Assembly (NCBI GenBank): GCA_963796455.1 | Contig: CAWCLO010000002.1 | Span: 128,001 to 192,000 of the forward strand | Reading direction: 5' to 3' | Length of the DNA stretch: 64,000 nucleotides | Source: Candidatus Sulfomarinibacteraceae bacterium | Lineage (GTDB): Bacteria > Acidobacteriota > Thermoanaerobaculia > Thermoanaerobaculales > Sulfomarinibacteraceae | Shown: positions 2,538 through 38,654 of the stretch, piece by piece | How positions within the stretch are numbered: position 1 is the stretch's first letter | How the letters are laid out: every line of letters begins with the position of its first letter | Program-made: the position numbers and the translations under genes | Notes under the pieces: generated by a model | Database searches by the model: none | What the model was told of the DNA's origin: nothing | The model's input: the letters and a program-made list of their open reading frames with translations, nothing else

Positions 2538-2542
2538 CGGAG

Positions 2543-3434
2543 AACCACCAAGACACCAAGGACGGACACCAGGAAAACCACAGAGGCACAGAGACACTGA
2601 GAGAGAACGCCCGCAGATCACGCAGAGAGACCCAGATTGATCATCTTTTTCGCTATCGTAGCTATCGCTATCGCTATCGCTATCGCTATCGACTGGAGAC
2701 TGACCGGATTTGCCCACAGATCTCCCAGATGACCCGGATGGCCGGCGTCGCAACCACAAAGACACAAAGACACAAAGCAGTCACGCCAAGAAAACCACAG
2801 AGGCACGGAGGCACAGAGAGAGAGAACGCCCGCAGATCACGCAGATAGACGCAGATCCATCGCAAAGAACGCAAAGAACGCAAAGTCGTAAAGACGCCAA
2901 GGCGAGTTGACCGGACTTGATGCGACGTTGCCATCAGTGTCGGCAGATCGACAGACGATCTCCGATCGCCCGTCGCCGGTGAGAAGCGGGGTGCCTCCAA
3001 TCGCCAGCGCTCGGAGTCACCCCGCGTCCCACCGCCCGGCACGCCCACGGCGTGCCGGTTCTGCCTTGGATCGGTGACGTCATCCCTTGATTGAAGAAAA
3101 GAGGAGGAAAGAGGCGAGACCTGCGCGGTCGCGCAGGCAGCTGGGTCAGGAAACCGTGACGAAAGCTCGTTTTCGGAACAGTTTCCTGACCCAGCTGTAC
3201 CTGGCCGCCCCTGGCGGCCAGAACCTCGCCGGACTGTGGATGGTCCGGGAAGTCCTCTGCGTCTCCGTGACTCTGCGCCTTTGCGTTAAGAACTCGAGAG
3301 GCTGACGCCGCGTGTTTTCAGCGGTCGGTGATGTTCCTGCAATCAGTCTGTCATCTGCGTCTATCTGCGTGATCTGTGGGCAAATTGCGCGGCTTTGCGT
3401 TTGCGATGTCTTCGCGCCTTTGCGTCTTTGCGTT
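2543..3434 (+). repeat. Composite intergenic element, copy A (short-repeat arms in inverted orientation around a hairpin core)
   Basis: Left arm has CACCAAG, CAC(A/G)GAG, CGCAGAT, GCTATC x5 (2661-2690), CACAAAG and CGCAAAG arrays. Core is about 2935-3137. Right arm carries the reverse complements, e.g. ATTTGCCCACAGATC 2708-2722 vs GATCTGTGGGCAAAT 3371-3385. Confidence 0.9.
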
Positions 3435-3559
3435 GAAAAGATAGATCGGCGAGGAAGTGAACTCGATGACACAATTTGCCGGGAGCCTCCGTTCTCAAGT
3501 GATTCTGGGCCTTTGCGCTGCCCGTCTGTGCTTCTGTGGTTGTCGCGGACCCGGAGAAC

Positions 3560-4951: not shown

Positions 4952-4966
4952 GTCGCGCACGCGACC

Positions 4967-5523
4967 GATGCTGGATGCTGGATCTGGCACGGCGTGGCCT
5001 GTAGGGAGAAGCCGGAGAAACCGCAGATCACGCAGATAGACGCAGATGGCAGCCGGACTTCCTGGGAATCCCTGTGCATGCGAATCTCACCTCCCGATGT
5101 CATCCTGAGCGGAGCCCCTCAGGGGGCGCAGTCGAAGGATCTATGAGATGGAACGGAAGATTCTCAGGCCGTAGGCTTGCCGGCCGGTGGGAAGCGGGGT
5201 GACTCCGAGCGCTGGCGATTGAGGTCACCCCGCTTCTCACCGGCGACTGGCGATCGGAGATCGTCTGTCGATCTGCCGATACCGATGGCACCCTCGCACG
5301 AGTTCGGCGACCTACCCTTTGCGTTTCTGCGACTTTGCGTTCTTTGCGGTTCATCCTGTGTTTTTCTGTGTGCTCTGTCGGCCATCGTGTTTGCGACGAG
5401 GCCGTTTGCGATGGATCTGCGTCCATCTGCGTGATCTGCGGGCGTTCTCTCTCTGTGTCTCCGTGCCTCCGTGTTTGCGGCGTCCCTATCTGCGGCCATC
5501 TGTGTGATCTGCGGTTTCTCTGA
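4967..5523 (-). repeat. Composite intergenic element, copy B (inverted, internally deleted)
   Basis: Core 5228-5277 is the reverse complement of 2942-2991 with one substitution. Terminal inverted repeats GAGAAACCGCAGATCAC(G/A)CAGAT at 5015-5037 and 5498-5520. Contains one REP-like arm at 5096-5142. Confidence 0.9.
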
Positions 5524-7319: not shown

Positions 7320-7414
7320 GAGCCCTCTTTTCACCGTGGATTATCTCAGATCATCTGCGTCATCGACCCGGAATTCCACGGAGGTCACAGAAGTCGCCTG
7401 TTTGTTCGAAGCAG

Positions 7415-8477
7415 GATGCACGATGCTGGAAGATCCCGCTGTCGGAGAAACCGCAGATCACGCAGATGGACGCAGATTGATCATCGCTATCGCTATCGCT
7501 ATCGCTATCGACGGGAGACGGACCGGATATGCCCACTGATTACCCAGGTGGACCCAGCCAAGAACGCCGCAAACACGAAGACACAAAGACACGAAGGCGC
7601 CACACCAAGAAAACCACGGAGGCACGGAGACACAGAGAGGGAACACAGAGAGCTGGCGAAAAGGCTGACAGAACACACAGAAAGACACAGAAGCCATCGC
7701 AAAGGTACAACCGGAGTGCAGCCGGGACGGCTGCACCACCATGGTGGTGCACGCGTCTCGCGTGCACATGGTTGAACCGCAAAGTACGCAAGGAACGCAA
7801 AGTCGCAAAGACGCCAAGGCGCGGTTGCCGAGATTGTGGGAGGGTGCCGTCAGTGGCGGCAGATCGACAGACGATCTCCGATCGCCCGTCGCCGGTGAGA
7901 AGCGGGGCGCCTCCGAACGCCAGCGCTCGCAGTCACCCCGCATCCCACCGTCCGGCACGCCTCCGGCATGCCGGATCTGCCTCGCATTGGTGACCGCCTT
8001 CCTTGATTGAAGAAGAGGAGAGGAAGGAGGCGAGACCTGCGCGATCGCGCAGGCCGCTGGTTGACGGCCAGGACCTCGCCGGGCGAAGGAATCTTCCGGG
8101 AAGTTCTCTGCGTCTCCGCGCCTTTGTGCCTCTGCGTTAAGAACGCGACAGGCGGCAGCTGCGTGGGTTTTGAGCTGGCAGCTTCTTTTCAAGATGTCAT
8201 CCTGAGCGAAGCGCCTTTGGCGCGCAGTCGAAGGATCTGCGGCTCGACTCGAGGTCTTAGTCACCTGTCTCATAGATCCTTCGACTACGCCCCCTGCGGG
8301 GCTCCGCTCAGGATGACATCGGGAGGCGACATTCGCATCCACATTGATTCCTACGAAGTCAGGCTGTCATCTGCGTCTCTCTGCGTGATCTGCGGTTTCT
8401 CCGACTGAAACTCCCCGGTGCACGGAATCGGGTTGGGCCGGGCCGATCCAGCATCCACTATCCAGTATCGAGTATCG
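7415..8477 (+). repeat. Composite intergenic element, copy C (longest)
   Basis: 37-bp terminal inverted repeats 7441-7477 / 8369-8405 (first 26 bp perfect); GCTATC x4 at 7486-7509; core 7858-7907 identical to 2942-2991; outer inverted GATGCTG-type heptamers. Confidence 0.9.
8193..8320. repeat. REPIN-like element (two inverted GTCATCCTGAGC...GAAGGATCT arms)
   Basis: GATGTCATCCTGAGCG at 8193 and its exact reverse complement ending at 8320; AGTCGAAGGATCT / AGATCCTTCGACT also pair; each arm contains a small GC hairpin. Confidence 0.85.
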
Positions 8478-9953: not shown

Positions 9954-9975
9954 TACCCAGCGTGATCGTTCGGAC

Positions 9976-10137
9976 AACCACGGAGGCACGAAGGCACAGA
10001 GAACCACACAGAGTTTTCTGAGACTTCGCGATGGCTCGTTTCATCACGACCGGCCACGGTGGACCATTCAATTCGGTGGTGGCTATTGTATGAATTCTTC
10101 TCTGTGCGGTCCTCTGTGCCTCTGTGTCTCTGTGGTT
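9976..10137. repeat. Mini element: 38-bp inverted CAC(A/G)GAG arrays around an 86-bp spacer
   Basis: 9976-10013 vs reverse complement of 10100-10137 match 32/38, all differences A/G; lies between convergent nhaC and the CocE-family gene. Confidence 0.85.
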
Positions 10138-12055
10138 AGTTTTCTTTGACGATCGGCAGCACGACCTTCGACGGGTGGTCCGGAGAGAGGTGAACGGTAT
10201 TGGTCGCCACCACACCCTCGGTCTCGTCGTAGTTCTTACCGCCGGTATTGAGGTTGCGGGTGAACCGCGGGAAGTTGCTCGACGAGACCTCGACCCGGAT
10301 CCGGTGTCCCTTGTCGAAGTAGTTGCTGGTCGAGAGGGGGCTGAGCTTGATTTCGTAGACCTCGCCCTCCTCCATGAAAACCTGTTTGTCGAAGCCCTCA
10401 CGATAGCGGGCCCTGAAGATGGTCTCGTCGAGATTCCACGCCTGACCTTCGGTGTCCACATCCACCAGTTTGACGGTGAAGTCGGTGTCCTTGGCGTCGG
10501 AGGAGACATAGAGGGTGACCTCGATCGGACCGCTGACCTCGACCCCCTCCTCGAGCACGTCGGTGCTGTAGACCAGAATATCGTGGCGCGCTTCCATCCG
10601 CCGTTGGTCGAAGGACCCTGCGTTGATGGCGTTGCCGGTGCAACAGACGTTACCGCCGTAGGACAGGACCGGGTTCATGGGATCATAGGTGAAGGTGTCG
10701 CTCTTCTTCGCAGAGGGTTTGTCGGTGCTGAGCAGGCCGTCGCCATAGAGGCTGTTGGCCCCTTTGTCGCTGTCGAGATAGTAGGTCACCATCTCGGTCC
10801 CGGCGGGCGGCCAGCTGGTTGACGAGTTCCACTCGTTGGAGCCCATCGTGTAGTACTGGACCCTGGGCAGTGTTTCGAGAATGCCGTTTTCTTCACCCTT
10901 GAGCCAGTAGTCGAACCAGTCGTAAGTCAGGTCTTCGTACTCGAGCCGCGCATCGCCCATGTTGCGTTCGCCGACAATGGTCTCTTCCTTCGAGCGGCGA
11001 AATCCACAATGCCCGACCGGGGCGATCAGCGCGTACTGGTTGGCTGCCACCTCGGGGTCCTTTGCGTTCTCCCTGACGTGGTTGAAGAGCGCCAGATTGG
11101 GGCTGATCGAGACGTCGTACCACGACATCCACCAGAAGCTCGGAACTCCGAAATCTTCGTCGTCGTGGTAGAGACCGCCCTTGTACCAGGCCGGGTCGTT
11201 GGGGGTGCGCTGGATCATCCGACCGCCGGTGGCGTTGGCGGCGGGATCGGCAAAGATACCTTCGGGCCCTTCGACCGAGCGCATGAGGTCTTCGACCGGC
11301 AGGTGCCAGAAGGCCTCGTCCCAGTCGACTTCCGGGTACTCGGGCGCGAGATCGAAGTACTTGGAGAGGCGGATGATGTCCTCGCGGTCGATGTCCGGCG
11401 AAAATGTGGGTCGCTGGGTGTTTTGGACCCCATAGAGCCAGGAAAAGAAAAGCATCTGCTCGGCGCCGCCGCGGTACCAGTTGCCCTGCTCGTAAAAGTC
11501 ACCGACGCGGCCGATGCCGGCGCCAAAACCCTGCGGCACCATGGCCGCATGGGCGGGATGATCGAGGGCGGCCAGACCCATCTGCCACTCGGCCGTTGAC
11601 GAGCACCCGAGAGTTCCCACCTTGCCGTTGGACCAGCCCTGGTGGACGATCCAGGTCAAGGCGTCGTAGCCGTCGGTCTTCGGCGGACCGAGGAGATCCC
11701 ACTCACCCTCGCTGAAATACCGGCCGCGTTCGTTCTGGACGACCATGGCATAACCGCGTTTCACTGCAGCGAGAGCCATCCGCAGCCCCCGGGTCTGCGG
11801 TTCGCCATCGCGGTAGAGGTTGAAATTGTAGGGTGTGCGAACAAAGATGGTCGGCACCGGGCCATCCGCGTTTTTGGGTCGGATGATGTCGGTGGCGAGG
11901 GCGACGCCGTCGCGCATTGGCATCATGACCTTCGGCTCGTAGATGGCGATTTTTTCGAGCGTCTTCATCACGTCCTCGCTCCCCTGGGCGGAGAGCGCGC
12001 CGGGCATCATCGCGGTCGCGACGCAGCACAGAACCAAAACGGTGAATTTTTTCAT
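10136..12055 (-). CDS. CocE/NonD family hydrolase (peptidase S15-like), secreted
   Basis: Signal peptide; '[11 protein letters not shown]', 'RTPY', 'RGRYFSEG', nucleophile 'GCSS', C-terminal '[15 protein letters not shown]'; GAGGAG RBS before MKKF. Confidence 0.92.
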
Positions 12056-14369: not shown

Positions 14370-14991
14370 GATCCTGGATGCTCGATGCTGGATCGACCGG
14401 CCCAACTCGATACCGGGTGCCGAAAGAACTTCGGTCGGAGAAACCGCAGATTACGCAGATGGACGCAGATAACTTCCCGGTAGGAGCTTCCGCCCGGCGA
14501 GGCCTGCGCGACCGCGCAGGCCTCGCCTCTTTCCTCCCCTCTCCTTCAATCGAGGAAGGGTGTCACTCATGCAAGGCAGAACCGGTGTGCCGGAGGCGCA
14601 CCGGTCGGTGGGGAGCGGGGTGACTCCGAGCGCTGGCGATCGGGAGGCGCCCCGCTTCTCACCGGCGACGGGCGATCGGAGATCGTCTGTCGATCTGCCG
14701 ACACTGACGGCACCCTCGCACAAGTTCGGCGACCTACCCTTTGCGTCTCTGCGACTTTGCGTTCTTTGCGGTTCATTCTGTGTGTTCTATGGGCAACCGT
14801 GTGTGCGACGAGTTCGTGTGCGATGGATCTGCGTCCATCTGCGCGATCTGCGGGCGTTCTCTCTCTCTGTGTCTCCGTGCCTCCGTGGTTGCGACGTTCT
14901 TGGCTGTATCCGGGTCCATTTGGGTTATCTGTGGGCAATCGTTTTTGCGACGAGAGCATTTGCGATGAATCTGCGTGATCTGTGGGCAAAT
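14370..14991 (-). repeat. Composite intergenic element, copy D (inverted)
   Basis: Core 14650-14699 is the exact reverse complement of 2942-2991; CGCAGAT arrays inverted at both ends; outer GATGCTG-type heptamers homologous to the right end of copy C. Confidence 0.9.
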
Positions 14992-15130
14992 TGAACTGTC
15001 CTGCGCTGGCTCCGTGGCTGTGTTCTTGTTCGGGAGTCAGCGGGCTATAGGAATACCCCGGCGGCGCGAGACGATTGCGGGATCATCGGTCTCAAGATGG
15101 CCTCGGCTCACTGAGATCCGTGTCGTCCTC

Positions 15131-37228: not shown

Positions 37229-37603
37229 CTAGCGAAGGTCCGGCGGCACCAGATCCTGCCGGATGATCTCGGCGACGATCGCTCCCGAGCTCCTTGCAAG
37301 GGTTGTCGCCAACTTCTTGACGGCCGTGCCTTCCTGGAAGCCCGACCGGAGCAGCGCACGATCTTCCTCGCTCCACGGCAGACCGGAGTTCTTCGGTCTT
37401 CCGAGTTCGAGGTTGTTCCGGCGCCTCGCCTCGACGCTCAATGGCGGCCGCTTCGAATTTTTGACGAATTCGAGGATCGAAAACAGTGCCCGGATCACTT
37501 CCGGGTCGTTGTACGGGCTCTCCGGTGAGAAGACCTCTCCGGTGGTGGGGTGGATACCCTGCGCGAGGGTGTTGACGATCTTACGGGATTCGTAGAGTTC
37601 CAT
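37229..37603 (-). CDS. Hypothetical protein with C-terminal Myb/HTH-like motif
   Basis: 'LAQGIHPTTGE..VIRALF' N-terminal part; 'GLPWSEEDRALL..LATTLARSSGAI' three-helix motif; AAGGAG RBS. Confidence 0.75.
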   Translation of the reverse strand: MELYESRKIVNTLAQGIHPTTGEVFSPESPYNDPEVIRALFSILEFVKNSKRPPLSVEARRRNNLELGRPKNSGLPWSEEDRALLRSGFQEGTAVKKLATTLARSSGAIVAEIIRQDLVPPDLR

Positions 37604-37698: not shown

Positions 37699-37727
37699 AA
37701 AGTATAAGTTGAATATCGGATTGTCAA
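37699..37727 (-). promoter_or_regulatory. Candidate sigma70 promoter for the 37229-37603 gene
   Basis: Minus strand TTGACA-N17-TACTTT in an AT-rich patch about 95 nt upstream of the start. Confidence 0.5.
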
Positions 37728-37828
37728 GGAGAACGAACTGCTGTCCAAAATAAATCGGCATGTCGAGTCGCCCATGTGACAACCCGAGGATGACGGGTTG
37801 GTTGTTGGCCTATCCTGTTCGCGATTGG

Positions 37829-37961
37829 CCCGTACCCGCACCCGATCCCGATCCCGATCCCAAATTGCAGCGGCAGCGATAGGGTCCAGCGACAGCGACA
37901 GGCAACAGCGAACAGGGACAGCGAACAGGGACAGTGATCAGCGGCAGCGGCAGCGGTCAGG
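37829..37961 (+). repeat. Short tandem repeat arrays upstream of the four-helix-bundle gene
   Basis: CCCGNN hexamers 37829-37864, then degenerate CAGCG(A/G)/ACAG(C/G)GA 6-7-mers 37868-37961. Confidence 0.85.
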
Positions 37962-37976
37962 AGTACAGGCGGCAAA

Positions 37977-38116
37977 ATGGCCACCTCCGGGTCGTTCAAA
38001 GGAAGGGGTAGCCGGTGGGCGGCCGATGTCAAGGACAGGCAGGGTGCAGGGCATCCTTGACATCGGCCACCACACCGGCTTGTGGCAAAGGGCATGAACG
38101 ACCCGGAGGTGACCAT
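37977..38116 (+). promoter_or_regulatory. Long rod-like hairpin enclosing the SD and start codon of the four-helix-bundle gene
   Basis: Nested perfect inverted repeats: 37982-37998/38095-38111 (17 bp), 38010-38017/38073-38080 (8 bp), 38021-38035/38054-38068 (15 bp), plus ATGG/CCAT at the base. Confidence 0.85.
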
Positions 38117-38468
38117 GTCCAACGCCGCGAGGAACACCAACCTCGTTGCCCACTCGAAAGCCCTCGAAGCAGCAGGCATCGCGATCAAACTCGTGATGAG
38201 AGTTCCCGCTCCGCTGAAATCCATAGCCGATCAGGTCATCCGGTCGGCAAGTTCGGTCCCTGCGAATCTGGCAGAAGGGCACGGCCGAGTTGGGAGAGAC
38301 CGGTCGAACCACTGGAGAATCGCATACGCCTCGGCGAAAGAGGTCGACAGCCACTTGAAGCTCCTCGCTCGCGCCGGGGCGGTCAACCGGAATGGAGCCA
38401 GTGAAGCGATGAAGGCCTTCGATCAGGTCCGTGCGATGACCTGGCGGCTCTTGAACCCGAAAATGTAA
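38115..38468 (+). CDS. Four-helix-bundle protein (23S rRNA intervening-sequence protein family; Avd-like fold)
   Basis: 117 aa; hallmark 'DQVIRSASSVPANLAEGHGR' and 'IAYASAKEV'; GGAGGT SD before ATG 38115. Confidence 0.92.
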   Translation: MSNAARNTNLVAHSKALEAAGIAIKLVMRVPAPLKSIADQVIRSASSVPANLAEGHGRVGRDRSNHWRIAYASAKEVDSHLKLLARAGAVNRNGASEAMKAFDQVRAMTWRLLNPKM

Positions 38469-38469
38469 G

Positions 38470-38587
38470 CGCTGTTCGCTGTTCGCTGTCGCTGCCCCGG
38501 CCGCTGGTCGCTGCCGCTGTCTCCTGTTCGCTGATGCTGTCCGCCGGTCCCTGTCGCCGTCCCTGAACGCTATCCGCGACTCTGTCT
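38470..38587 (-). repeat. Short tandem repeat array downstream of the four-helix-bundle gene, inverted relative to the upstream array
   Basis: CGCTGTT CGCTGTT CGCTGT CGCTGC..CCCTGT begins 1 nt after the stop codon; reverse complement of the upstream ACAGCG/ACAGGG units. Confidence 0.85.
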
Positions 38588-38654
38588 TGGACAAGAGTCG
38601 AAGAGAACCCAACAAAATGGGTGAGGGGGTTCGTTGCGCGCGGTGAGGTGCCGC

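Follow-up and report, generated by a model that had tools for sequence, protein, structure and literature searches.

MICs and MITEs with ends of the IS4 family (IS4Sa) are the described elements closest to the locus reported here. Excerpts of PMC3129680 and PMC2266710 describe elements that are bounded by the inverted repeats of a real IS4 and contain no transposase, as is the case for our cassette. MICs and MITEs are moved in trans by a cognate transposase (excerpt of PMC3129680), and subgroup IS4Sa is given CA ends and 8-10-bp repeats (PMC2266710, excerpt with Table 1). The cassette also resembles them in its 9-bp duplications, its passenger gene and its gene-less miniature derivatives. It differs from them in having 58 intact copies under purifying selection, in a passenger that is a repeat-armed four-helix-bundle unit found also in ISL3 ends or in none, and in its preference for a 7-mer microsatellite holding ATSCWGSAT. 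ORF-bearing intervening sequences (IVS) of 23S rRNA, known from Coxiella and Leptospira (S23p), are alike in the protein family (PF05635) and in the complementary sequences that enclose the gene. PMC4990558 states that RNase III cuts the Coxiella IVS, whose ORF is decaying and whose protein is seemingly not made. In contrast, the cassette is intergenic, multicopy, transposon-borne and absent from the 23S gene; its arms are degenerate word arrays without co-variation, its ribosome site is strong but sequestered, and its ORF is conserved and not decaying.

Promoters on single-stranded plasmid DNA (Frpo/ssi of class 1, and classes 2 and 3) also have a long stem-loop before a gene. In the available portions of PMC9849209, PMC12672017 and bioRxiv 10.64898/2026.01.09.698686, the folded strand places -35 and -10-like boxes, and the stem-loops that rebuild these boxes act as promoters on incoming plasmid DNA. 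Our candidate, likened to them by layout and not by sequence, sits in the cargo of a chromosomal transposon and not in a plasmid leading region, and only TA is left of its -10. The accessory protein Avd of DGRs, as well as Xcc0516 and BT_0352, has the four-helix-bundle fold of the locus protein, but identity to Avd is only 7-11% and the DGR reverse transcriptase is missing from the assembly: no reverse transcriptase (PF00078) was found in the genome of the locus (G000). Our literature search, which covered main texts of mostly open-access journals, found no paper describing the cassette family. As a type of transposon the cassette is ordinary, and its cargo and regulation are the interesting part.

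We analysed a window of 64,000 nucleotides from the contig CAWCLO010000002.1 (positions 128,001 to 192,000) and conclude that the locus is a non-autonomous IS4Sa-type mobile insertion cassette with an unusual, selected cargo. In our fuller reading, to which we give a probability of roughly 0.68, a cassette with IS4-family ends and 9-bp duplications, moved by a borrowed IS4 transposase, carries an older cargo of arrays, hairpin and gene that is expressed from single strands. The unit spans 37,736-38,600 (865 bp), and other copies in G000 are homologous to it from about 37,740 up to 38,600. The original prediction had given it as 37,829-38,587, which falls short of the true ends, where the inverted repeats and the decayed 9-bp duplication lie. 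The parts of the locus are as follows; L198 is an autonomous IS4 described below.

37,727-37,735, plus strand: left copy of the decayed 9-bp target duplication, AGGAGAACG, 7/9 identical to 38,601-38,609
37,736-37,754, plus strand: terminal inverted repeat, matching the IRR of the autonomous IS4; its first base differs from the C of the family
37,755-37,828, plus strand: subterminal sequence derived from IS4, with a weak alignment to the L198 IRR region
37,829-37,861, plus strand: outer 6-mer array, CCCGAT/CCCGCA
37,866-37,960, plus strand: left CAG-word array (arm), 95 nt
37,977-38,116, plus strand: leader hairpin, folding at -93.8 kcal/mol as RNA and about -56 kcal/mol as DNA
38,005-38,032, minus strand: putative fold-back (single-strand DNA) promoter on the template strand of the gene
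38,115-38,468, plus strand: four-helix-bundle gene (PF05635/TIGR02436), 117 aa
38,470-38,575, plus strand: right CTG-word array, the reverse complement of the left words, 106 nt
38,581-38,600, minus strand: terminal inverted repeat, matching the IRL of the autonomous IS4
38,601-38,609, plus strand: right copy of the decayed target duplication, AAGAGAACC

Terminal inverted repeats of about 19 bp thus enclose both the gene and the arrays. The arrays are not the termini of the cassette here and lie internal to these IS4-type ends. The locus copy is worn, as is seen in its changed first base, in an extra base at 38,599 in the right terminal inverted repeat, which is absent from a related contig, and in its duplication, which is kept at 7/9 and does not fit the target consensus ATSCWGSAT. 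In other copies the outer array is of the GTGYCC type, and the GTGYCC word also flanks the gene in the sister family.

A scan of G000 for these ends found 107 left ends and 176 right ends, 82 of which could be paired. We scored the 78 paired elements that had no second left end inside and were under 2.5 kb. A 9-bp duplication was exact in 21 of them and had at most one mismatch in 38; shuffled end pairing averaged 7 and never exceeded 14, and duplication lengths of 8 and 10 gave 0. Of 27 sites outside microsatellites, 10 had a match of 9 bp, and lengths of 8 or 10 gave no match. The target consensus, derived from 49 sites, is a palindrome. In G000 the family has about 210 loci and makes up 1.9% of the genome, and 58 of the 71 copies with a start are intact. 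The prediction that the locus is a mobile cassette is supported by the related loci, the transposon ends and the target duplications. The copies are old, with a median nearest-neighbour identity of 93.6%, and only 2 of the 58 reach 99%.

The cassette carries a passenger gene and lacks a transposase. A complete IS4 that shares its ends, L198:1376-2786 (1,411 bp), was located in the same-genus genome G017; it was reached by an end-motif scan of collections, which gave an IS4-type fragment, and then by a PF14294 search. Its protein is a DUF4372 IS4 transposase (NF033592, 251 bits, cut-off 115) with a YREK-type motif, and no matching target duplication was seen at L198 itself. The CA ends and 9-bp duplications fit subgroup IS4Sa. 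A transposase of the L198 type was detected in 1 of 25 genus genomes (G017 only), and a cognate transposase was not found in the G000 assembly, which is 90.5% complete (best tblastn E of 4.2, no PF14294 match). Since the cassette has IS4 ends without a transposase of its own, it was likely moved by a borrowed one. Movement would have been by cut-and-paste in past bursts, with the IS4 transposase acting in trans; that the bursts are past is suggested by the age of the copies and the missing transposase in the G000 assembly. The only PF01609 transposase in G000, on contig C7, was rejected as the cognate enzyme because its ends differ. This transposase belongs to an IS with its own ends at G000:C7:290,900-293,800, and a frameshifted transposase, IS110-like by eye, lies beside it at the contig end.

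An empty site for the locus was not found, as none of 24 genus genomes has an orthologous flank. The cassette sits a few bases upstream of the likely -35 box of a 124-aa gene on the minus strand (37,232-37,603), which has no Pfam or NCBIfam match and is present in varying contexts in 11 of 24 same-genus genomes. No cassette match lies within 1.5 kb of its orthologs in these 11 genomes, but synteny is broken there. In eight sequencing runs the two flanks were not seen joined directly. Three runs have contigs that bridge a junction and include the cassette, and in one RNA run a contig spans the left junction, which as a contig cannot show transcription.

The locus protein passes the cut-offs of PF05635 (55.3 bits, cut-off 33.8) and TIGR02436 (57.5 bits, cut-off 24), and an in-frame ATG at 38,094 is an alternative start that gives 124 aa. 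The protein model has four helices and a pLDDT of 93.6. Its best structural matches are Xcc0516 and BT_0352 (2GSC, 2RLD; TM 0.78-0.84), and the match to Avd (PDB 4DWL, 8UB7) is weaker (TM 0.75-0.80, E about 0.1). G000 has 70 PF05635 matches, 67 of them above the cut-off, and about 60 full-length proteins are 85-97% identical to the locus protein. Avd binds nucleic acid. By analogy with Xcc0516 and Avd, the locus protein is likely oligomeric. PF05635 is a large family (4,049 proteins at E <= 1e-10) with solved structures, for which no function is known, and the cassette offers a handle on it: 58 diverged, selected copies per genome, three wrappers, and a conserved hairpin with a prediction, that of transcription from the single strand, which is cheap to test. 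For the IS4-ended form, L198 is a named transposase that could mobilise it, and gene, hairpin and arms are separable.

Purifying selection acts on the gene. Among the 58 intact copies in G000 the pairwise dN/dS is 0.144, and the ratio is 0.14 for shared changes and 0.55 for singleton changes (p = 2e-4). Many gene-less short elements carry target duplications of their own, and in 27 of 48 short elements (a count by eye), which lie at separate sites, the gene is replaced by one and the same hairpin. The gene-less derivatives with their own duplications indicate that the gene is dispensable in cis for IS4-type moves. Copies recombine with each other, as four-gamete incompatibility increases with distance, from 0.45 to 0.62, and none of 300 permutations was as low. 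Gene conversion could therefore blur the selection argument, and a strict inference of selection in cis is weakened.

The leader hairpin contains the ribosome site. Its 22-bp outer stem (37,977-37,998 with 38,095-38,116) covers the Shine-Dalgarno GGAGG at 38,105-38,109 and both candidate start codons, and since this stem covers the ribosome site, read-through transcripts would be translationally silent. The inner stem pairs 38,018-38,035 with 38,054-38,071, and a set of 123 unique leaders shows compensatory changes in the inner stems. As DNA, the stem-loop folds at about -56 kcal/mol over 155 nt, with TTGACA in the stem. The candidate promoter consists of the -35 TTGACA (38,032-38,027), a 16-nt spacer and a weak -10 TACCCC (38,010-38,005). 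On the template strand, the 3' arm of the hairpin has TTGACA, 16-18 nt, and then TA at an internal loop. The template-strand TA at this spacing is found in 63/64 leaders of the own genome, 77/82 from elsewhere in the family and 8/8 from the sister family (parsed from 66, 95 and 10 unique leaders, respectively, and oriented by the gene), and it is never found on the other strand of the same leaders. Where TTG is kept on a single strand, that strand is the template in 20 leaders and the other one in 4, although kin among these are not independent. In the own genome both strands retain TTG (62 and 64 of 64), and both discordant cases go against the template strand, so the asymmetry rests on the relatives, which are not independent of each other. 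Only 5 of 148 leaders have a T as the last base of the -10, and a consensus promoter scan does not call the -10. Because this T is mostly absent, promoter function is likely and not established.

From these features, the hairpin is likely a fold-back single-strand promoter that switches the gene on from single-stranded DNA only. The template strand would fold back during DNA uptake, transfer, repair or cruciform extrusion, and TTGACA and the unpaired TA would then form a promoter. From there, polymerase would read through the 5' arm into the gene, and the resulting transcript, lacking the blocking 5' arm, could be translated. The protein may act on single-stranded DNA and favour the establishment of an incoming copy, which would explain the selection on many redundant copies. 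A counterpoint to the promoter part is that our search of plasmid and phage collections, the home of known single-strand promoters, gave no cassette match.

The two arms are built from complementary words. The left array has 14 CAG and no CTG, with five ACAGCG/ACAGGG, and the right array has 12 CTG and no CAG and begins 1 nt past the stop. Aligned in inverted orientation, the two arrays score 62, whereas 1,000 dinucleotide shuffles average 20.6 and reach at most 40. The proposed 117-codon four-helix-bundle gene between inverted short-repeat arrays is therefore real, with an array match far above shuffles, and the right array follows the stop and complements the left words as described, at a measured 106 nt. 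The predicted pairing of the arms around leader and gene was likewise obtained on folding 37,800-38,620 (z = -7.0, 20 shuffles). Arms are inverted in 27/27 own copies and in 20/20 copies of the relatives G014 and G008. By eye, all four other four-helix-bundle genes and three GxxExxY genes in G000 also have inverted arrays of their own words, with no visible ends. Paralogs thus do have inverted flanking arrays, as the original prediction required. Rfam gave no match within the window.

The unit occurs beyond this genome. Element matches were found in 18 of 24 same-genus genomes and in 3 of 16 sister-family genomes; records titled Candidatus Sulfomarinibacteraceae are among the relatives that have the cassette, and copy number among relatives ranges from one broken match (G001) to about 70. 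Of 28 loci of relatives that we examined, 17 (in G014, G008 and G005) have two ends of a non-IS4 type, and 13 of these 17 show an 8-bp duplication at one mismatch or fewer. ISL3 elements have GG ends and 8-bp repeats. The autonomous partner of these ends is L243, a 1,303-bp ISL3 found in a metagenome scan (NF033550, 295 bits), and G008 encodes a relative. IS1595 was considered as the partner of the GG-ended relatives and rejected, because four loci had no such ends and ISL3 fits. G004 has 47 element matches; among 30 loci, an IS4 end was found in 0/26 upstream and 0/28 downstream windows, and a clear ISL3 end in 3/28 downstream windows, with positive-control scores of 35-39. Since most G004 copies have neither IS end, IS transposition leaves them unexplained. 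G040, of the sister family, has 46 element matches, and the loci read there have the same hairpin plan with different letters, lie in direct GTGYCC arrays and lack both IS4 and ISL3 ends. The inner unit of the original prediction therefore occurs outside IS4 ends. A tree of 113 sequences, rooted on the sister family, included 8 of the 58 own copies and placed the IS4-ended copies in a single clade (FastTree support 0.997); the ISL3 labels of this tree came from a loose pattern that includes false positives, and only the IS4 clade was used. As read from these sequences, the core of hairpin and gene is older than its transposon ends. Retro-type spread was considered and rejected, since neither G000 nor G004 has a reverse transcriptase and the apparent 5' truncations are internal deletions: nine seemingly 5'-truncated G004 copies retain left-arm words.

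These data allow the alternatives to be weighed. The original prediction had proposed an IVS-like RNA, in which the arms pair in the transcript, leader and gene are cut out (RNase III) and the protein binds arms or leader. The predicted fold, the inverted arms of the own, G014 and G008 copies and the complementary, RNase III-cut borders of the Coxiella IVS (PMC4990558, in part) agree with this proposal, and any left arm forms a duplex with any right arm at -112 kcal/mol, against -70 for shuffled arms. However, a copy's own arms pair no better with each other than with arms of other copies (n = 38; p = 0.92 for alignment, 0.84 for energy), and their lengths correlate at -0.27 (n = 38). Arrays are direct in 10/10 sister-family loci, and in G004 they are inverted in 10/18 and direct in 6/18. 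The direct arrays of the sister family and the missing co-variation both argue against an excised IVS-like RNA. The single 23S gene of G000 (C10:140,644-143,654) has no PF05635 match. In well-paired columns of the hairpin, A-C mismatches number 20 and G-U 11; A-C is thus not the rarer of the two, and there is no sign of RNA-specific pairing. We therefore consider an excised RNA highly improbable, and the arrays probably represent landing sites or padding that was inherited, not a processing stem.

The G004 and G040 copies speak for another idea, namely that the core of hairpin and gene is itself selfish and transposase-free, spreading by single-stranded uptake, fold-back expression and recombination into repeat-word arrays, with IS4 and ISL3 ends as later rides. 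We regard this as unlikely. The core is conserved across three chassis, and the seven other solo four-helix-bundle and GxxExxY genes of G000, all armed and without visible ends, also count for it. The uptake genes comEC and dprA are present in the genome, as they are in most control genomes. On the other hand, the ends in G004 and G040 may be lost or belong to a third family, in G000 the family moved with IS4 ends whether it held the gene or not, and we know of no catalytic activity of the four-helix-bundle fold; the missing reverse transcriptase and the internal deletions also count against such spread. Its most specific form, in which the promoter fires only on incoming single-stranded DNA, the Avd-like protein settles this DNA into arrays of its own words, two Acidobacteriota-type families were colonised and IS4 and ISL3 ends were captured separately, is equally doubtful. 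If true, it would give the 'IVS protein' family a function and would account for both ORF-bearing rRNA intervening sequences and repeat-armed cassettes. A service to the host, for example in the response to single-stranded or invading DNA, appears still less probable to us. Here host selection, dosage or harm from missense subunits would keep the gene, and the transposon ends merely multiplied it. Selection even on singleton changes, the size of the protein family, and whole-gene loss that is common and tolerated while missense change is depleted would all be expected from it. Against it are the wide range of copy number among relatives, the six of 24 same-genus genomes without a DNA match (four of the six under 90% complete) and the lack of a conserved gene neighbourhood. 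The IS4 cassette with an older cargo has counterpoints of its own, as G000 has no cognate transposase, no empty site was found and the duplication of the locus is 7/9; it is nevertheless the reading that we prefer.

Several observations concern the targets and ends of the preferred IS4 cassette. The period of the target arrays tracks the length of the duplication: 7-mer arrays of the ATCCAGC type go with the 9-bp IS4 target in G000, which starts and finishes in AT, and 8-mer AACGTT arrays go with the 8-bp ISL3 target in G014 and G008. The target microsatellites could be footprints of insertion and excision (period 7 = 9 - 2 for IS4, and 8 for ISL3). An end is abutted by 50 of 118 target arrays, which fits a target preference as well as footprints. 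The same IS4 ends also enclose other cargo, REP-like hairpin elements of 260-370 bp without the four-helix-bundle gene (L063-L092, in G008, G012, G021 and G024). The end motif occurs as well in records titled Bacteroidota, Thermodesulfovibrionales, Chitinivibrionales, Verrucomicrobiota and others. L130 and L153 are near-identical IS4-ended cassettes from a contig titled 'uncultured Alphaproteobacteria', which reflects either transfer or mis-binning.

Close pairs of two four-helix-bundle subfamilies on opposite strands were seen in G040 (C500, C393, C52, C26 and C411) and G036 (C86); they are tail-to-tail where read, and their arrays alternate words with a small recurring hairpin. In the window, intergenic blocks at 2,540-3,460, 4,960-5,520, 7,410-8,000 and 14,370-15,000 consist of concatenated short-word arrays around hairpins. 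Their words (CACAGAG, CGCAGAT, ATCGCT, CACAAAG and CGCAAAG) are the words that arm solo GxxExxY and four-helix-bundle genes, and one such block gives 60 blastn pieces genome-wide, 27 of them on contig C4. At 9,975-10,140, inverted CACAGAG / CTCTGTG arms stand around about 100 bp without a gene, and this arrangement resembles a gutted cassette of the GxxExxY type.
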